Assembly (NCBI GenBank): GCA_036511855.1
Contig: DATCBN010000015.1
Coordinates: forward strand, 1,566 to 65,565
From: Candidatus Eremiobacteraceae bacterium
GTDB taxonomy: Bacteria > Vulcanimicrobiota > Vulcanimicrobiia > Eremiobacterales > Eremiobacteraceae
Direction: 5' to 3'
DNA: 64,000 nucleotides
Each line of letters opens with the position of its first letter. Within the stretch, counting starts at the first letter, position 1. A model generated the notes under the pieces. The model was not told the DNA's origin, ran no database searches, and saw nothing but the letters and a program-made list of their open reading frames with translations. Below, piece by piece: positions 42,923-52,594 of the stretch. Made by a program: the position numbers and the translations under genes.

Positions 42923-44251
42923 ATGAGCATGGACGCGGACGTCGTCGTGATTGGAGCCGGCGCGGCGGGCCTGGCGGCTGCGCGAAGCATGGCACGCCGG
43001 TCGTTGCGGGTTATCGTGCTCGAGGCGCGCGACCACGAAGGCGGCCGGGTGTGGTCCGAGGTGTCTGCTGGAGATCGCGCGCCGGTCGAACTCGGCGCCG
43101 AGTTCATACACGGACCCGCGCGTGAGACGCTCAAATTGCTTCGCGACGCCGGTACAGCGTCGGTCGACACGGCCGGCGAGGCGTGGGTATGCGGTGACGA
43201 CGGGGAGCTGCATCGCGCGAATGACAACGAATTCCTATCCGCCGCCGGCATCTTCGAGGGCGCTCGCGCGCTCGCACACGACGAGAGCGTTGATCGCTTT
43301 CTCCGCCGCTTCGACGGCGATGTCGCAAGGCAGAATGACGCGCGCGCTGCGCGGTCGTTCGTCGAGGGCTTCGACGCTGCCGATCCAGCAATCGCGAGCG
43401 CCGTCGGGATCGCGGATGAGTGGCGGTCGGGTGTGGACATCGCATCCGCGCGGCCGATCGGCGGATACCAACCGATGTTCGAATACCTGCGCACGTCATG
43501 CATCGCCGCGGGCGTTCAAACGTTTCTGTCGACCGCCGTACGCCAAATCTCATGGAGGCGCGGCGAAGTCAGGGTCTCTGCGAAGAACGCACGAGAGGAA
43601 ACACGGACGATTAGCGCGCGAGCCGTCATCGTCACGGTACCGATCGGTGTATTGCGGCGGCGCGGCGGCGAGCCGGCGATCTTGTTTCAGCCCGGATTGC
43701 CCAAGGCGAAGCTCAAGTCGATCGCGAGCATCGAGATGGGTGATGCCGTCAAAGTGGTGCTCAAATTCCGTTCGCCATTCTGGGAGCGCATCCGCGATGG
43801 ACGCTATCGTGACGCCGCGTTCTTCCGCGGCGTGGCGCAGCCTTTCCCGACGTATTGGACCCAATTGCCCGAGCGGAGCGACTTGATCGTTGCCTGGGTC
43901 GGAGGCCCGAAGGCGACTGCGTTGAGCGGCGTTTCGCAGGATGAGCTTATCGATCGCGCGCTGAGCGGTCTCGACGCGTTGCTCGGCGAGCCGGCTCTTT
44001 TGCGCGCGGAATTTGAACGCGGATTCACGCACGATTGGCGCCGCGACCCGTTCGCGCGTGGCGCATACAGTTACGTGGCCGTCGGTGGCGGGGATGCGCG
44101 GGCGACGCTTGCCGCGCCCGTCGATGAGACGCTATTCTTCGCCGGGGAGGCGACCGCGAACGACGGCCAAGGCGGAACGGTGAACGGTGCGCTCGAAACC
44201 GGGGAGCGCGCTGCGAGGGAAGCGGCAGATTCTATCGGCGCCGCTGCGTAA
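42923..44251 (+). CDS. FAD-dependent amine oxidase (flavin monoamine/polyamine oxidase family)
   Basis: 'DVVVIGAGAAGLAAA', 'VLEARDHEGGRV', C-terminal 'FFAGEAT...GTVNGALETGERAA'. Confidence 0.8.
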   Translation: MSMDADVVVIGAGAAGLAAARSMARRSLRVIVLEARDHEGGRVWSEVSAGDRAPVELGAEFIHGPARETLKLLRDAGTASVDTAGEAWVCGDDGELHRANDNEFLSAAGIFEGARALAHDESVDRFLRRFDGDVARQNDARAARSFVEGFDAADPAIASAVGIADEWRSGVDIASARPIGGYQPMFEYLRTSCIAAGVQTFLSTAVRQISWRRGEVRVSAKNAREETRTISARAVIVTVPIGVLRRRGGEPAILFQPGLPKAKLKSIASIEMGDAVKVVLKFRSPFWERIRDGRYRDAAFFRGVAQPFPTYWTQLPERSDLIVAWVGGPKATALSGVSQDELIDRALSGLDALLGEPALLRAEFERGFTHDWRRDPFARGAYSYVAVGGGDARATLAAPVDETLFFAGEATANDGQGGTVNGALETGERAAREAADSIGAAA

Positions 44252-44255
44252 TCGT

Positions 44256-44804
44256 ATGGCTGAAAATGCGTCGTCCATCCTCACGCACTGGTCGAACTTC
44301 TACATACTGCTCGGCTCGGCCGCTGCGTCCCTGACCGGGTTGATGTTTGTCGTCATCACGTTGGTCATGGGCACGGAACGGCGACGGCAGGCAGAGGATG
44401 GGATCTCGACGTTCAGCACGCCAACCGTGGTGCACTTCGGCGCGGCGCTATTGCTAGCGGCGATTCTCAGCGCGCCATGGGACCGGCTGATCGACCCCGC
44501 TGTCTTGCTTGGACTCGTCGGGATATGCGGCGTTGCGTACGTATCGCGTTTGATCTACCGGACGACGCGAATGAATGGGTATAGCGCGGATGCAGAAGAC
44601 TGGGCCTGGTTTTCGATTCTACCATTGGTCGCCTACGCTTCGATCTTCGCAGGCGCGGTCGACCTTCCGATCGACCCAGCGCACGCGCTCTTCGTGCTCG
44701 CACTTGGGGCTGCGCTTCTGATACTCATCGGCATTCACAACGCTTGGGACATCGTGACATACATCGCGCTTGGAAACGCCGAAAAGCCGCCGGCATCGAA
44801 ATAG
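44256..44804 (+). CDS. hypothetical membrane protein
   Basis: ATG 44256 lies 4 nt after the oxidase stop. Four to five TM helices. No family recognised. Confidence 0.55.
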   Translation: MAENASSILTHWSNFYILLGSAAASLTGLMFVVITLVMGTERRRQAEDGISTFSTPTVVHFGAALLLAAILSAPWDRLIDPAVLLGLVGICGVAYVSRLIYRTTRMNGYSADAEDWAWFSILPLVAYASIFAGAVDLPIDPAHALFVLALGAALLILIGIHNAWDIVTYIALGNAEKPPASK

Positions 44805-44811
44805 CGTAGAA

Positions 44812-45783
44812 TTATTCGGGCCACGCCAGGCCGGTCAGGCGTTCACTCAATCCCCAAAGCGCTCGTGCTGTGGTCTTGTCGATAGCCCAGCGTCGTACGC
44901 CGGAAGAAAGCTGGCCGTCGTCGGGAATGATTTCGGCGATGTCGCAGTCTGCACAATAGACGCCGCCTTTGCCGCTCAGTTGAGGGCTCAGCGCACACCA
45001 CATGGTCGTCGCCGCGCCTTGCTCGATGGTCTTGAGGCCAGGTCCCTGCAGGACGCCGCCCACTCGAGATATCCCCGCCGCAATCAGATCGTCGTCGGTC
45101 ATGTAACGACCAAGGTTGGTGGTGACTATTCTGCCGGGATGAACGGCGAACGCGCGCGTGTCAAATTCTCGACCGCGGCGGTCGAGCTCGACTGAAAACA
45201 GAGAATTTGCGTTCTTGGATTGCCCGTAGGCGATCCATTTGTCATACGGCCGCGCAGTGAAGTTCAGATCTTCGAGATCGACTTGTGCAAATCGGTGCCC
45301 GGCTGAAGACAAAGTGACCACTCGTGAAGACTTCGCGCTCTTGAGCGCAGTCCAGAGACGCGCGGTGAGCTGAAAATGACCCAAGTGATTGGTCGCAAAT
45401 TGCATCTCGTAGCCACGGTGATCTCGCATCAGCGGCGTTGCCATGATTCCGGCATTGTTGATAAGTAGATCGAGGGACCGATTTGCGTCGAGAAATGTCT
45501 GGGAGAATTCGTCGATGGAACTCGGATCTGCAAGGTCCAAGCGCACCGCTACGACGTTGTTCAGTCCCGAGAGAGCGTCGCGCGCCTTTTGAAGATCACG
45601 GGCGCCAACGAACACGCTGGCGCCCGCATTTGCGAGAACTCGTGTCGTCTCGAGTCCAATTCCTGAGTGACCGCCCGTTACGACTACGACTCGTCCGCCA
45701 AGGTCCAGTCCTGAGGCGATTTCGTCAGCCGTGGTTTGCGGTCCATAACCCGATCCTAAGGGCTGTTGTTCCGTCTCCATCAC
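44812..45783 (-). CDS. SDR-family oxidoreductase
   Basis: 'VVVTGGHSGIGLET', 'NNAG', catalytic 'YGQSK'. Confidence 0.85.
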   Translation of the reverse strand: MMETEQQPLGSGYGPQTTADEIASGLDLGGRVVVVTGGHSGIGLETTRVLANAGASVFVGARDLQKARDALSGLNNVVAVRLDLADPSSIDEFSQTFLDANRSLDLLINNAGIMATPLMRDHRGYEMQFATNHLGHFQLTARLWTALKSAKSSRVVTLSSAGHRFAQVDLEDLNFTARPYDKWIAYGQSKNANSLFSVELDRRGREFDTRAFAVHPGRIVTTNLGRYMTDDDLIAAGISRVGGVLQGPGLKTIEQGAATTMWCALSPQLSGKGGVYCADCDIAEIIPDDGQLSSGVRRWAIDKTTARALWGLSERLTGLAWPE

Positions 45784-45831
45784 AACCGCGCTACAGCAGA
45801 AGAGCAGACGCCATTGAAATGAAGTGCGTTC

Positions 45832-48800
45832 TTACGAGCACCCCATGCTTCTTCCACACGAATCGCAGACGTAGCACGCTCCGTTGCGCCGGGTCAGCGA
45901 TCCGCACCCGTCGCACACCGGAGCGTCGCCCATCATCGAGGCCAACTGCGCCTCGCGCGAGCGAAGAGCGTTTAGTTGGGCCGCGGCCGATGGGTCGATC
46001 GGAGTCGCCGGTGATTGGGCAAGCGATGCTTGCCCTAGTACGGGTTTGGATTGGGCAAGCGATGCGTGCCCTAGTACGGGTTTGGACGAACTACTCGAAC
46101 CTGTTTGTGCGGACGGCGACAACGCGCGGCGCGCGATGACCTTCGCCGATTCCTCCGAAGCTTGCTGCTCGGCGACCATCGTCTCGAATTCGGAGAGCGC
46201 GTGGTCCTCGTGGTGGGTGTCGTCGACGTCTTTGTCTTCAGGTTTGACCTGAACGAAGTCGGTCCGTCCGAGATACTCCATACCGAGCACGCGGAAGATG
46301 TAGTCGATGACGCTCGTGCACGATTTGATGTTCGGGTGATCGACGAAGCCGTTGGGCTCGAACCGTGTGAAAGTGAACTTCTCGACGAATTCTTCCAGCG
46401 GCACGCCATACTGCATTCCGATCGAAACGGCGATCGCGAAGCAGTTCATGAGACTGCGGAACGATGCGCCTTCTTTGTGCAGATCGACGAATATCTCGCC
46501 TAAGGTGCCATCGCCGTATTCACCGGTGCGCAAGAAGACGGTGTGCCCCGCGATTTTCGCCTTCTGCGTCCAGCCGCGCCGTTTTGCCGGCAGCCGGTTG
46601 CGTTCGAGCACTTGCGCGACTTTGCGTTTGAAGTCGGTGTTGTCGGTGTTGGCGAGGATGCGTTGCGCGGCCGCGAGGATTTCGTCCGGCCGCAGTTCAT
46701 CGGCCGCGGACTGACGCGCCGCGGCGAGGCGGTCTTCGAACTCTTTGGACAACGCCAGCTGACGATCTTCGGCGGACTCGCTCGATTTGTCGGAGCCCTT
46801 GGTGGAGAGCGGCTGCGATAGCTTGGATCCGTCTCGATACAGCGCGATAGCCTTTAGCCCGAGGTCCCAGGAGCGCATGTACGCCTCTTGGATGTCTTGG
46901 ACGGTGGCTTCCATCGGCATGTTGATGGTCTTGGAGATGGCGCCTGAGATGAACGGCTGCGCGGCAGCCATCATGCGCACGTGACCCATGTGCTGGATAT
47001 AGCGGCGGCCGATCTTGCCGCACTTATTCGCGCAATCGAACGCGGCGTAGTGCTCTTCTTTGAGATGCGGTGCGCCTTCCACGGTCATCGTGCCGCAGAT
47101 ATAGTTGTTGGCGGCGTCCACCTCGTCGCGCGAGAAGCCGAGCAATCGCAAGAGGTCGAAGTCCGTCGCGCTGTATTGTTCGGGAGTGAAGCCCAGCCGC
47201 TGAAGCGTGGCCTCGCCAAGGCTCCATTGATTGAAGCCGAAGCCGATCTCGAACACCGCCGGCAAGCTGCGCTCGATGGCTTGGATGTCTTGGTCGTTGA
47301 AGCCGCGCGCGCGCAACGTTTCGACATTGATGTACGGCGAGCCGTACAGCGTGCCCGCGCCTTTGGCGTAGCGGATGATGTCGTCGATCTGCGCCGGCGC
47401 GTAGCCGAAGTTTCGCAACGCCACCGGAATGGATTGGTTGATGATCTTGAAGTAGCCGCCGCCTGAGAGCTTTTTGAACTTCACGAGCGCGAAGTCGGGC
47501 TCGATGCCGGTGGTGTCGCAATCCATCTGAAGGCCGATTGTTCCAGTAGGTGCAATGCATGTGGCCTGCGCGTTGCGATAGCCATGTTCTTCGCCAAGTT
47601 CGAGCGCCCGATCCCACGCTGCCCGCGCAGCGGCTAGCAGATACGGCGGGCACAACGTCTGGTCGATGCCCATCGGAACGACAGACACTTCTTCGTATTC
47701 CGCACCCGGTGCGTTGTATGCCGCGCGACGATGATTGCGCATGACGCGCAGCATGTCGTCGGAATTTTCTCTATAACGCGAAAACGGCCCAAGTTCGCCG
47801 GCCATTTCGGCCGACGCAGCATACGACTCACCCGTCAAGATTGCAGAGATCGCTCCAGATATCGCGAGCGCTCGAGGAGAATCGTACGGAATACCGGCGA
47901 CCATAAGCATCGTGCCGAGATTCGCATAGCCAAGACCGAGAGTGCGATACTCGTACGACTTTCGTGCGATGGATTGACTTGGAAAGTGCGCCATGAGCAC
48001 GGAGATCTCGAGCACCATCGTCCACAGCCGGATGGCATGACGATACGCTTCTACGTCGACGGTGTTCTTTTCGGCGTCGAAGAACTTCATCAAGTTTATA
48101 CTTGCCAAGTTGCAAGCTGTGTCGTCCAAGAACACGTACTCGGAGCAGTTGTGCACGATCAAGCCGTTGGCGACGAAATGGTGCGTGTCGGATTCGGTGA
48201 GATCGAAGACGGGCTCGAGCCCCAGGGCCTCAATTGTGTCGACTTCATCGACCAACGGTTCGGCGTACGTCGCCACATCGCGATTGATCGCGGCGAGCGC
48301 ATCGGCCTTTGCGGTTACCGGATCGAAGCCAATGTGCTGTTCGAATAATACGCGCGACGCACGGCTGACCCGCAGCGAATGCATCTCTTTCACTGGATAT
48401 GTGCGCATCCCGCCGCGGCCATCCGGCAACGCGGCTTCGAGCTTGCCATTGCGACGGCCGGAATAGATCTTCGCTTTGATGCCGAAGGAGAGCAGAAGTA
48501 GTTGAACCTGCTGGAGCAGTTCGAGCGATGTTGAATCGAGCGCCACATATTGGCTCTTGTCGCCGTAGTTGGCAACCGTGCCATCGGCGGAGAACAGGCC
48601 GCGAAGCACGAGACCGACGGATGCGCGGTCGAGTTCGTACACCGAGTCGGTGAATCGTTTCTGGTGGCTGCCCTGGTCGAGCACAGCGTATCGTTTGAAG
48701 ACGTCGACCACAGGTTGCGAGCCGAACGACAGCCGGGAAGTACTGGAGGTGTACGACGTGACCTGGACTTCGTCGTTTCGTCCGACGGAGCCGATGGCTT

Positions 48801-50400
48801 TCCGCGCGCGCTTTTCGTCGTTGACGGCGAGCGCGATCTTTTCGAGAATCGGCCACTCCGCCGCGGCCATGACTAGAGTTACATTCTCGCGGGCGCGCCC
48901 CGCGACGGTCGCATGAGCAAGATAGCCGTCGCCTACGGCGGCGCCGATGCCAAGCGCGATATCGTCGACAAGTTTGACCGAGCCGAAGCCCGATCCAGCA
49001 AGCGCGACGAGATCGCCCTTTTGCAGTTCGTTCGCGGCGACGTCGCCGCGCGACTTCGTGAACACCTTGTGGTCGCCGGTGAGGCGAAGCGAATAGCCGG
49101 CCTTGGTGCGCAGGCGGAACACTTGCTTCGTGCCGGTTGGGAAAATGCGGGAGACGAAGTGCGCCTTGCCGTCGGAGCCTATGACGAATGCGGACTTGCC
49201 GACGAGGGCATCGATGCGGTGCAGGCCGTCGGCTGTCGCGACGAATGTATCGCCCGTGACACACGGATTTGTCGCCCGGATCCGTCCGCCCTTAGGCGAT
49301 GTATGCCATGAATTGATGATGTCGTCATATTGCACGCCTGGATCTGCGCACGCCCACGCGGCGCGGCCGATCTGATCCCACAGATCGCGCGCGCGAACGG
49401 TGCGCGCCACCGAGCGATCCTTGCGCCACAGCAGATCCCACGAACCGTCGTTGCGCACGGCGTCGATGAACTTGTCCGGCACGCGCACGGAGTTGTTGGA
49501 GTTCTGACCGGAGACCGTCTGATAGGCCTCGCCCTCGTACGAACTGTCGTAGCCGGCGGCCATCAGCGCGGCGACTTTCTTTTCTTCTTGCACTTTCCAA
49601 TTGATGAACTTGTCGATGTCAGGGTGGTCCATGTCGAGGATGACCATCTTCGCGGCGCGCCGGGTTGTGCCGCCGCTCTTGATTGCGCCTGCGGCTCGAT
49701 CGCCGACTTTGAGGAAGGACATGAGGCCGCTCGACGTGCCGCCGCCGCCTAGCTTTTCGCCTTCGGCGCGGATGTTCGAGAAATTGCTTCCCGTGCCCGA
49801 ACCCATCTTGAAGAGGCGCGCTTCGCGCACCCACAGATCCATGATGCCGTTTTCATTGACGAGATCGTCTTCGACCGACTGGATAAAACAGGCGTGCGCC
49901 TGCACGCGTGTGTACGCGTCTTCGGAGCGCACGAGCTCTTGCGTATCGGGGTCGACGTAATAGTGTCCTTGCGGCGTGCCGGTTATCCCGTACGCATAAG
50001 CCAGCCCGGTGTTGAACCACTGCGGCGAGTTGGGCGCGGCCATCTGATTGATGAGCATGTGTGTGATCTCGGCATCGAACGCGGCAGCGTCTTCGTCGGT
50101 GTCGAAATATTTATAACGGCGTCCCCAATCGGTCCAGCATCCAGCTAAACGGCGCACCACCTGTCGCGCCGACGTTTCGCTGCCAAGCGAACTATCGGGT
50201 TGGGGCACCCCGGCTTTGCGGAAATATTTCTGCGCGAGGATGTCGGTGGCGACTTGCGACCACGCTTTCGGCACTTCGACATCGCGCATCTCGAAGACGA
50301 CGGTGCCGTCGGGCTCGCGGATGACCGATTCCCGGCTATCCCATTCGATGGTGTCAAGCGGATCGGTGCCTTGTTTGGTGAAACGCCGTTGGATCTTCAT
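45832..50400 (-). CDS. nrdJ: adenosylcobalamin-dependent ribonucleotide reductase (class II, NrdJ), intein-containing precursor
   Basis: '[11 protein letters not shown]', '[12 protein letters not shown]', 'TNPC|...|[18 protein letters not shown]' split by an intein, 'ISKTINMP', C-terminal zinc ribbon '[21 protein letters not shown]'. Confidence 0.92.
46017..46071. repeat. two REP-like hairpins (36-nt unit x2) inside the nrdJ coding sequence
   Basis: GGGCAAGC-GAT-GCTTGCCC-TAGTAC (46017-41) and GGGCAAGC-GAT-GCGTGCCC-TAGTAC (46053-77). The 36-nt unit spans 46014-49 and 46050-85. Confidence 0.9.
48148..49263 (-). mobile_element. intein (372 aa) with LAGLIDADG homing-endonuclease domain inside nrdJ
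   Basis: Residues 380-751 of the precursor. Block A '[13 protein letters not shown]', block B 'LTGDHKVFT', LAGLIDADG motifs '[12 protein letters not shown]' and '[12 protein letters not shown]', block F/G '[13 protein letters not shown]' followed by +1 Cys. Codons checked: TGT at 49261-63, AAC at 48148-50. Confidence 0.88.
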
Positions 50401-50544
50401 GGACCTTCCTAGTCCTTTCTCTCTATATCATGACTGCCGCGAACGGTGGTGATGATGCGAAAGGGACGCTCGAAACGCCTGGGGCTTTGCAGCCACCGAA
50501 CGGTCAAACTGATTGGAAACGTATGTTCGACGAACGTTCATTCG

Positions 50545-50609
50545 CCCCTACGTATAGTGGCTCCCGGAGTGACATCCCCCATTATATAGCGACGGAAGGT
50601 GATATGCAA
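50545..50609 (-). promoter_or_regulatory. candidate nrdJ promoter (TTGCAT-17-TATAAT) with two NrdR-box-like palindromes
   Basis: Minus strand: -35 TTGCAT (50609-04) and -10 TATAAT (50586-81). Box 1 is TCGCTATATAATGGGG (50592-77) and box 2 is CCACTATACGTAGGGG (50560-45). Each matches 11/16 positions of acaCwAtATaTwGtgt, with centres 32 bp apart. Confidence 0.5.
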
Positions 50610-50853
50610 TAGATTTTTCGAACAGCAGTTTGTACACAGGCCGCACTCATGCTGCGCCTGACATGGCGCGGTTTTCCGCAGATTCCCATGTACAGGAATT
50701 GCCCCGTGTGCAGAACTCCGCGTTTCCGGCATATGAATAGGATTAGGAGCGACGAAATATCTAGACGATCTAACCTCACAATTTCGAGCGGAAATGTGGA
50801 AATGGACGGATGGTCCCTATACGTCCGACCGTCCGCTCTGATAGCGTAGGCAA

Positions 50854-51624
50854 ATGGACTTTCACTTTTCCATCGCGGGCTTTGTCGTTGGCATACTCGT
50901 CGGTCTGACCGGCGTGGGCTCGAGCGCGCTCATGCTGCCGATCCTCGTGCTGTTTCTCGGTGTCAGTCCGCTTTTGGCGGTCGGCACCGACCTCGCGTAC
51001 AGCGTTCCCACAAAACTTGTCGGGGCGTTCATGCACGGTCAGCAGAAGACCGGAAACCGGCGCGTCGTGCTGTATCTCGCGTACGGGGGCGTGCCGGCGG
51101 CCATACTCGGTGTGCTCACGCTGCGCTGGGTTGAAGCGCACATCGGCCTTGCGGCGCTCAACACCGACCTCAAGCATGGCCTTGGAATATTGCTGTTCTT
51201 CGTCTCCGCGGTGGTGCTGGTCACGCCGTTGATTTTGAAAGCGCATAATCCCGACCCCTACGTCACGGTGAAAAATGCGAAATGGCGCATCATCGTCGTC
51301 GGCGCCATCGTCGGGTACCTCGTCGCGATCACGTCGATCGGCGCAGGCTCGATCACGATGACGGCGCTTTGTCTCATCCTCCCGATCGTTCGCCTGCGCG
51401 ATCTCGTCGGTTCCGACGTCGCGTTCGCCGCGCTCATCGTGCCGGTCGCGGCCATAGGACACGTCGCGCTTGGCAACGTGAATTGGGCCATGACCCTCGC
51501 GCTGATCATAGGATCCATCCCCGGTGTGTTGATCGGCGCCTGGCTATGCAAGAAGATGGAGACCAAATGGCTGCGCGTGACGATGGCTATCGCGATGGTC
51601 GCAGCCGGAACGCGCATGTTCTAG
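50854..51624 (+). CDS. TauE/SafE (DUF81) family anion exporter
   Basis: Eight TM helices, 'GLTGVGSSALMLPILV' and repeated 'SIGAGSITMTAL' halves. Confidence 0.8.
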   Translation: MDFHFSIAGFVVGILVGLTGVGSSALMLPILVLFLGVSPLLAVGTDLAYSVPTKLVGAFMHGQQKTGNRRVVLYLAYGGVPAAILGVLTLRWVEAHIGLAALNTDLKHGLGILLFFVSAVVLVTPLILKAHNPDPYVTVKNAKWRIIVVGAIVGYLVAITSIGAGSITMTALCLILPIVRLRDLVGSDVAFAALIVPVAAIGHVALGNVNWAMTLALIIGSIPGVLIGAWLCKKMETKWLRVTMAIAMVAAGTRMF

Positions 51625-51651
51625 CGGTTTCGTCGCAATCGGCCATACAAC

Positions 51652-51677
51652 GCCCCGCGCTCGTCGCGGGGCTTTTT
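51652..51677 (+). terminator. rho-independent terminator
   Basis: GCCCCGCG-CTCGT-CGCGGGGC followed by TTTTT, 28 nt after the TauE stop. Confidence 0.7.
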
Positions 51678-51703
51678 CGTGGCGTGGTCGAACGAGCGAT
51701 CCG

Positions 51704-52594
51704 ATGAGCTCGAAAACGCTCGACATCGCCCTCGTGCAATTCGCGCCGCGAAAGGGCGATCTCAAAGCCAACCTAAACGCCCTCACGGGGGCTTTTGCAA
51801 GTTTAAAGCGCGATCGCGCCGGTATGGCAGACGTCGTAGTCTTTCCCGAAACCTGTCTCTCCGGCTATTTTGTGGAAGGCGGGGTGCGCGAACTCGCGCT
51901 TTCCGCAGATGAGGCGCTGCATCACATCAATGCAAGCGCCGCCAAAGGCTGCGGCAAAGCGCACCACCCGTTCGACGTCATCGTCGGTTTTTACGAGAAC
52001 GACGGCGGCAAGCTCTACAATAGCGCTCTGTACGCCACGCTCGGTACGAAGCCGAAACTTCGCCACGTCCACCGCAAGATGTTTCTGCCCACTTACGGCG
52101 TCTTCGACGAAGAGCGGTTCGTGTCGCGCGGGAGCGCCATCGCGGCGTTCGACGTGCCGTACGGCCGGGTCGCGATGCTCATCTGCGAGGACGCTTGCCA
52201 TTCGCTTGCAACCACAGTTGCGGCGCTGCACGGCGCGCAGATAGTCTTTATCCCGAGCGCGTCGCCCGGTCGCGGGCTCGAAGACGCCGAGCCCGCAAAC
52301 GTGCGCATGTGGCGCGACATCATGCGCGTGACGTCGGCCGAACATGGCATCTTCACGGTGTACGCAGGCTTACTCGGCTTTGAAGGCGGCAAGGGCTTCA
52401 CCGGCGCTTCGCGCGTCGTCGGCCCTCTCGGCGACCTGCGAGCGGAAGCGCCGTTCGACCAGCCGGCCATCTTGCGCACGAAGATCCGTTTGGAAGACGT
52501 CGCCGTCGCGCGCGCCGCGCTTCCCATGCTCGGCGACCTCGAGGCCAATCTCGCCGAACTCGCCGCGCAACTGCAGCCGCAGGTGGAAAGGTGA
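51704..52594 (+). CDS. carbon-nitrogen hydrolase (nitrilase superfamily), probable glutaminase partner of NadE
   Basis: Catalytic-triad context 'VVFPETCLSGY' (Glu), 'HRKMFLPTYGVFDE' (Lys), 'MLICEDACH' (Cys). The stop overlaps the nadE GTG (GTGA). Confidence 0.8.
   Translation: MSSKTLDIALVQFAPRKGDLKANLNALTGAFASLKRDRAGMADVVVFPETCLSGYFVEGGVRELALSADEALHHINASAAKGCGKAHHPFDVIVGFYENDGGKLYNSALYATLGTKPKLRHVHRKMFLPTYGVFDEERFVSRGSAIAAFDVPYGRVAMLICEDACHSLATTVAALHGAQIVFIPSASPGRGLEDAEPANVRMWRDIMRVTSAEHGIFTVYAGLLGFEGGKGFTGASRVVGPLGDLRAEAPFDQPAILRTKIRLEDVAVARAALPMLGDLEANLAELAAQLQPQVER

Follow-up and report, generated by a model that had tools for sequence, protein, structure and literature searches.

The nrdJ gene and its intein

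We analysed a stretch of 64,000 nucleotides (hereafter the window; contig DATCBN010000015.1, positions 1,566 to 65,565) from the metagenome-assembled genome (MAG) of an uncultured soil bacterium of the Eremiobacterota (Vulcanimicrobiota, Candidatus Eremiobacteraceae; GenBank assembly GCA_036511855.1). The minus strand of the window contains nrdJ, which encodes a ribonucleotide reductase (RNR) and is interrupted in frame by a 372-residue segment. This segment is, with high confidence, a canonical class 1 intein i.e. a HINT domain carrying a double-motif LAGLIDADG endonuclease, flanked by Pro379 and the thiyl-radical cysteine of the enzyme. The parts of the gene are as follows:

45832-50400, minus strand: nrdJ precursor open reading frame (ORF), 1522 amino acids plus stop codon; class II adenosylcobalamin-dependent RNR with one intein
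49264-50400, minus strand: N-extein, residues 1-379, ending ...RIRATNP; aligned to PDB entry 7b9p up to 'irgsNP'
48148-49263, minus strand: intein, 372 residues (precursor residues 380-751); a double-motif LAGLIDADG homing-endonuclease domain set within a HINT splicing domain
45832-48147, minus strand: C-extein, residues 752-1522 plus stop codon; holds the TSCPD domain and a C-terminal Cys-rich tail
48145-48147, minus strand: Cys+1 (precursor Cys752, Cys380 after splicing); Thermotoga maritima position 322 by alignment, in the NPCSE finger loop
48112-48114, minus strand: Cys763 (Cys391 after splicing); equals T. maritima Cys333, and carries no intein ahead of it in the window gene

The precursor matched the Pfam families for the class II RNR N-terminal domain (PF08471, 5e-36), the RNR barrel (PF02867, 4e-125) and the TSCPD domain (6e-10). 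Two NCBIfam hidden Markov models (HMMs) for B12-dependent RNRs scored above their cut-offs, NF005122 with 1232 bits (cut-off 859) and TIGR02504 with 577 bits (cut-off 400), and a third, NF005736, whose match is broken up by the intein, for that reason fell just below its own (1688 against 1737). With the N-terminal domain, the barrel and the equivalog HMM matches all present, the predicted product is a class II (B12-dependent) NrdJ. Removal of residues 380-751 in silico gave a spliced NrdJ of 1150 amino acids.

Splicing and endonuclease domains

Profile searches recognised both functional parts of the segment. The splicing domain matched Pfam Intein_splicing (PF14890; 60.1 bits, cut-off 35.8, E 2.8e-16), its N-terminal region matched TIGR01445 (intein residues 1-69; 38.3 bits, cut-off 24.5) and its C-terminal region matched TIGR01443 (intein residues 351-372; 23.7 bits, cut-off 15.6). 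The endonuclease part matched LAGLIDADG_3 (PF14528) over intein residues 219-312 (65.1 bits, cut-off 22.5, E 7e-18). We judged conservation from an alignment of 45 homologues that are 41-78% identical to the window intein, and invariance below refers to this alignment. The motifs, from the N-terminus of the intein onwards, are:

49246-49263, minus strand: block A, Cys1-Val-Thr-Gly-Asp-Thr, with the N-terminal nucleophile; C1 and T3 invariant
49069-49080, minus strand: block B, T62-G-D-H65 (TxxH); T62 and H65 invariant
48289-48969, minus strand: homing-endonuclease domain, approximately intein residues 99-325, with approximate borders taken from PF14528, the secondary structure of the model and the I-DmoI match
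48922-48954, minus strand: LAGLIDADG motif 1, LGIGAAVGD112GY, with catalytic Asp112; G111, D112 and G113 invariant
48577-48606, minus strand: LAGLIDADG motif 2, LRGLFSAD227GT, with catalytic Asp227; F224 and D227 invariant
48163-48210, minus strand: block F, with Asp354 at F:4; V352, D354, L355, E357, F363 and G367 invariant
48148-48159, minus strand: block G, I-V-H371-N372, with the penultimate His and the cyclising terminal Asn; H371 and N372 invariant, within the TIGR01443 match

Within the endonuclease domain K202, Q238, K265 and R270/R271 were also invariant, across phyla. The combination of Cys at residue 1 and Asp at F:4 places the intein in class 1, and the WCT triad of class 3 was not found in the window intein. 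The first-pass annotation, made from the letters and a list of their ORFs, had described the splicing blocks and both LAGLIDADG motifs as intact and had proposed a comparison with intein HMMs; the invariance of the key residues bears out the description, and all four intein models scored above their curated cut-offs.

An AlphaFold2 model of the intein, built on the 45 homologues, had a mean predicted local distance difference test score (pLDDT) of 94 and a predicted template modelling score (pTM) of 0.93. When the model was compared with the PDB by Foldseek the leading matches were bifunctional inteins, i.e. TliVMA (7qsu; best, E 3e-18) followed by PI-PfuI (1dq3), PI-SceI (1ef0) and PI-TkoII, with E-values for TliVMA, PI-PfuI and PI-SceI between 1e-14 and 3e-18. 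The central domain matched I-DmoI and I-OnuI-type structures with a target-normalised template modelling (TM) score of ∼0.7, and the mini-inteins of Mtu RecA and of DnaB matched the splicing domain. By sequence, DnaB and RecA inteins are its relatives among the PDB entries.

Position of the insertion at the active site

The junctions of the insert in the translated ORF read RIRATNP/CVTGDT...LIVHN/CSEYVFLDD, where slashes mark the borders. The codon of the intein's Cys1 (Cys380) occupies 49261-49263 and that of its terminal Asn 48148-48150, so the extent given in the first-pass annotation (48148-49263, residues 380-751) was exact to the base. The annotation had also called the segment an insertion and not a domain of NrdJ, and this holds: the spliced extein aligned with the NrdJ structures 7b9p and 7b9q colinearly and gap-free across the junction (E = 0), it aligned ungapped with T. 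maritima NrdJ (1xje) from chain residue 284, and removal of the insert restores a conserved host protein whose identical, empty site was found in 13 family relatives.

In the alignment to T. maritima NrdJ, precursor Cys172, Cys752 and Cys763 fall on chain positions 134, 322 and 333, and the N-P-C-S-E motif is present. We take T. maritima Cys322 to be the thiyl-radical cysteine and Cys134 and Cys333 to be the redox pair. The spacing of the three window cysteines and the N-P-C-x-E context fit these active-site roles. The alignment thus bears out the earlier proposal that Cys+1 would act twice, as the +1 nucleophile of the intein and then as the radical-bearing cysteine of the reductase.

Occupied, mini and empty sites in the host family

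We searched 40 relatives of the host, a comparison that the first-pass annotation had recommended, taking the full genes and mapping the insertions against the intein-free protein of genome G012. The NP/CSE site holds a full-length intein in five genomes and a mini-intein in four, and is empty in 13. The full-length inteins (371-372 amino acids) belong to the four host-genus genomes (G000-G003), each of which has one with 69-78% identity to the window intein, and to G007. The mini-inteins (149-162 amino acids, in G005, G015, G021 and G024; loci L038, L044, L046 and L048) have no endonuclease and end in ...FDANGFY(V/A)HN; as they are only ∼40% identical to the full-length allele in the splicing region, they form a separate lineage from it.

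On the extein tree the states of the site require at least five changes, e.g. G006, which is empty and precisely so, is sister to the mini-intein-bearing G015 with 99% support. In the extein alignment the 11 residues between two intein sites are misplaced in the occupied genomes, which affects 11 of 1119 columns and was ignored for the tree. The use of the intein as a lineage marker, which had been suggested, is therefore limited by these changes of occupancy within the family, although all of the host-genus genomes carry it. Of 48 positions in the joined flanks of the window gene, 8-17 differ from the corresponding flanks of naturally empty alleles; most of the differences appear to be synonymous, with the amino acids almost unchanged where translated flanks were compared. 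As read from these genes, the mosaic of the family is that of a classic homing cycle, with predicted steps of invasion, fixation, endonuclease decay and precise loss.

Further inteins were found in the nrdJ genes of the relatives. A second, unrelated LAGLIDADG intein of 366-373 amino acids, ∼27% identical to the window intein, is present in G001 (L034), G003 (L036) and G011 (L007) at DDTA/CNLAS, i.e. 11 residues downstream of NP/CSE and directly ahead of the Cys333 equivalent, a site that is empty in the window gene. G001 and G003 carry both inteins with 11 extein residues between them, and G011 is empty at NP/CSE. Inteins at PQPHA/CFIQS, directly ahead of the Cys134 equivalent, were found in G001, G004, G006, G009, G010, G015, G017, G021 and G024 (loci L034-L049); this site corresponds to window Cys172 (∼49885-49887). 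Across the host family, inteins precede all three active-site cysteines of NrdJ. Other sites are GSG/TGTNF (G004 and G015), ISK/TINMP (G014 and G020) and SLMN/CFAIA (G015), and some relatives have NrdJ ORFs of 2100-2250 amino acids with three to five inteins. The inserts at PQPHA/CFIQS and at these other sites were recognised from their junction sequences alone.

Damaged copies of nrdJ or of its intein, split over several frames, interrupted by an in-frame TGA or without a clean ORF, occur in some Eremiobacterota MAGs of the 'MFD' series (G022:C3:744000-751200, which is L047, and L094, L117, L118, L120, L121 and L125). The intein match in L125 spans 1575 nt compared with the usual ∼1116. Possible causes are indel errors of long-read sequencing, decay of the inteins and a nested insertion.

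Distribution and inheritance of the allele

A search of a protein collection with the intein region returned at least 1456 homologous proteins. The 120 best of these are all NrdJ, with inteins 55-82% identical to the query, all inserted at [ST]NP/CSE and with CSE following the intein in 120 of 120. Among GTDB representative genomes there were 66 clean intein loci at the same site, [ST]NP/C[SG]E, from at least 20 phyla including Armatimonadota, Planctomycetota, Chlorobiota, Bacteroidota, Chloroflexota, Acidobacteriota, Nitrospirota, Patescibacteria and DPANN archaea; cultured hosts with an intein at this site are Chlorobaculum (Chlorobiota) and Terrimonas sp. R1 (Bacteroidota). For many of the intein-bearing NrdJ proteins the name assigned automatically by NCBI is 'hypothetical protein' or 'LAGLIDADG family homing endonuclease' (e.g. 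P0011, P0014, P0038 and P0076), and labels of this kind conceal the RNR of the cell when a MAG is annotated.

The intein tree is mostly clustered by phylum, with 22 label changes against a minimum of 19 and 41 expected when the labels are shuffled. The exceptions are the Eremiobacterota inteins, which fall into at least three separate groups, an Acidiferrales copy inside a Baltobacteraceae clade and a Thermoflexales copy inside the Chlorobiota clade. This pattern indicates that the allele is old, and that it has been inherited mostly vertically with occasional transfer. The composition of the intein equals that of its host gene (GC content 0.614 in the intein and 0.599 in the extein; GC at third codon positions, GC3, 0.75 and 0.74), which marks it as a long-term resident. 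Composition thus gives no evidence of recent acquisition, as both GC and GC3 are alike in intein and extein.

Predicted splicing and homing activity

The genome containing the window (3.07 Mb in 112 contigs, 96.4% complete) has one PF02867 locus only, the window nrdJ; class III NrdD was not found in this 96.4%-complete genome, and neither was a second intein. Because the intein interrupts the finger loop of the sole RNR found, the RNR would work only after splicing and the cell would need the spliced product. The dN/dS ratio (nonsynonymous to synonymous substitution rates) of the extein against genus relative G003 was 0.01, a value that, at the level of sequence, is that of a strongly constrained gene. 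Splicing competence is very likely, since no other RNR was found, every catalytic residue is preserved and the extein is constrained.

Splicing would follow the standard intein pathway. An N-S acyl shift at Cys1, aided by Thr62 and His65 of block B, would give a thioester, which the thiyl-site Cys+1 would attack (trans-thioesterification). Cyclisation of Asn372, aided by His371 and block F, would then release the intein, and an S-N shift would restore the peptide bond in ...ATNP-CSEYVF..., giving active 1150-residue NrdJ and free intein. The free intein is probably still a site-specific endonuclease, whose target would be the joined NP/CSE coding sequence of nrdJ alleles that lack the intein; after cleavage there, the intein would be copied into the empty allele by repair (homing).

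For the endonuclease the evidence is conservation. Between G000 and G003 its domain had a dN/dS of 0.09, compared with 0.07-0.14 for the splicing domain, so that purifying selection looks equally strong on the two, in a comparison where dS is ∼1.2-1.3 and the values are rough (against G001, G002 and G007 dS is 1.6-2.7 i.e. saturated). The low dN/dS together with the invariant residues across phyla argues for maintenance of endonuclease function, and we consider present-day activity moderately probable, i.e. somewhat more so than its loss. For cleavage and homing themselves, the sporadic occupancy of the site in the family and the non-monophyly of the Eremiobacterota inteins are further indirect evidence. 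The first-pass annotation had proposed an active mobile intein, and this is half borne out: splicing competence is strongly indicated, and the support for the endonuclease is conservation and dN/dS.

Several points weigh against an intein that both splices and homes. We infer both splicing and DNA cleavage; a second RNR could sit in the missing part of the MAG, with its 112 contigs and 96.4% completeness; dS is near or above 1 among the members of the genus, so that dS is saturated and the dN/dS values are rough; among the host-genus copies, the intein and extein trees have matching topologies, which is the pattern of vertical descent and gives no direct sign of recent homing; and a search of a phage collection gave only SPbeta-type bnrdE inteins, 28% identical, so that no vector was identified there.

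The strongest alternative is that the intein splices but that the nuclease activity of its LAGLIDADG domain has been lost, the intein being a vertically inherited passenger whose domain is kept for the stability of folding or splicing. All four host-genus genomes carry the intein with agreeing intein and extein topologies, its composition is fully ameliorated, and the mini-inteins that four members of the family have at this site indicate that loss of the endonuclease is tolerated there. Against a passenger of this kind are the invariance across phyla of both catalytic aspartates and of K202, Q238, K265 and R270/R271, the dN/dS of 0.09 in the endonuclease domain, and the at least three clades of Eremiobacterota inteins and the cross-phylum placements, which imply transfers. 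We regard loss of the nuclease as doubtful.

A second alternative adds a regulatory role, in which oxidising conditions would lead to a disulfide between Cys1 and Cys+1 (or Cys763) that stalls splicing and leaves NrdJ as an inactive precursor. Splicing controlled by a disulfide is documented for other inteins, e.g. mycobacterial DnaB (PMC6195587; reviewed in PMC4031507 and PMC5874633), and here Cys1 and Cys+1 are both cysteines with a further redox-active Cys 11 residues on. If it were true, RNR maturation and the supply of deoxyribonucleoside triphosphates would follow the thiol/redox state of the cell, and the presence of inteins ahead of all three catalytic cysteines in one family would reflect selection and not only endonuclease targeting of conserved DNA. 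However, nothing specific to such a switch was seen in the window intein, the Cys1/Cys+1 pair is the commonest intein configuration, and the 45-homologue alignment contains no extra conserved Cys placed for a trap, which makes the switch improbable.

It is less probable still, to the point of being very unlikely, that the intein is splicing-dead and nrdJ a pseudogene or the source of a non-functional precursor: nothing direct speaks for this, the only opening being that another RNR could exist in an incomplete MAG, and it is opposed by a frame that is open over 1522 codons with all catalytic residues intact, by the extein dN/dS of 0.01 and by the detection of no other RNR. The reading of the segment as an ordinary domain of NrdJ or an artefact of chimeric assembly found no support and can practically be dismissed, as curated HMMs, fold and boundary residues all identify an intein, solved NrdJ structures and the 13 relatives with empty sites lack the segment exactly at NP/CSE, and independent assemblies of the same genus carry the intein with congruent phylogeny, which rules out a chimera.

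Other features of the nrdJ gene

The C-terminal tail of NrdJ (window 45832-45920) contains the cysteines of a CxxC...CxxC pattern, which are kept in all of the family relatives read; many class II RNRs reportedly end in a Cys-rich zinc-finger tail, to which this one is presumably similar. A tandem 12-residue repeat at 46014-46085 (minus strand, within nrdJ) lies in a low-complexity linker ahead of this tail. Upstream of nrdJ, at 50545-50609 on the minus strand, there are two similar A/T-rich boxes, cgCTATATaatGGGG and caCTATAcgtaGGGG, ∼31-32 bp apart, which overlap a TATAAT promoter-like hexamer. The boxes cgCTATATaatGGGG and caCTATAcgtaGGGG are consistent with candidate tandem NrdR operators. 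An Rfam scan of window positions 44000-52000 gave no match at the gathering thresholds.

Comparison with known systems

Among structures, PI-PfuI, the RNR intein of Pyrococcus furiosus (1dq3), is a top match to the window intein (TMq 0.64), although the two are only 13% identical in sequence and PI-PfuI is larger (454 amino acids). The model NF006207 (PRK08332), which describes the Thermococcales NrdJ inteins, aligns to intein residues 40-372 and on into the C-extein; as this archaeal model of intein-bearing NrdJ runs through the end of the intein, the window intein is allelic to the intein in that family. The only phage relatives found were those of the SPbeta-family Bacillus phage bnrdE intein, reportedly described by Lazarevic and colleagues in 1998, which is likewise of LAGLIDADG type and lies in the large subunit of an RNR, but differs in having a class Ib NrdE host and in being only 28% identical to the window intein.

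As the first-pass annotation noted, RNR inteins are known as a class: ∼80 had been curated in RNRdb by 2009 (PMC2795772), and the site directly N-terminal to the thiyl-radical Cys is the most frequent one for contiguous RNR inteins (Dassa et al. 2009, NAR 37:2560, PMC2677866). The contiguous RNR ('RIR1'/NrdJ) inteins of InBase and PMC2677866 share with the window intein the enzyme family, the NP/C insertion point, the Cys1/Cys+1 chemistry and the LAGLIDADG endonuclease, and at least 186 proteins or loci have a homologue, 41-82% identical, at this very position. The window allele differs from them in its host lineage, Candidatus Eremiobacteraceae, and by an identity of at most 82% among the matches listed, and no functional difference was seen. 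The NrdJ-1 split intein from metagenomes (PMC2677866) interrupts the same finger loop of the same enzyme; however, it is inserted one residue further C-terminal (NPC/SE) and consists of two halves that flank a free-standing endonuclease gene, whereas the window intein is contiguous, the Cys itself serving as its +1 residue.

The window intein is therefore ordinary i.e. a correctly read, uncatalogued allele at the commonest known RNR intein site. The expected usefulness for intein catalogues stands insofar as the allele is uncatalogued, well conserved in its Cys1/Cys+1 configuration and accompanied by a high-confidence model, and is tempered by the site being the commonest in RNRs. With it the largest known class of RNR inteins gains an allele and a host phylum (Eremiobacterota/WPS-2), and the only RNR found in the MAG can be annotated correctly as an intein-containing and probably functional nrdJ. 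The mosaic of its host family, with full-length, mini and empty states at one site and at least five other sites in the same gene, offers a compact natural data set on the homing cycle.

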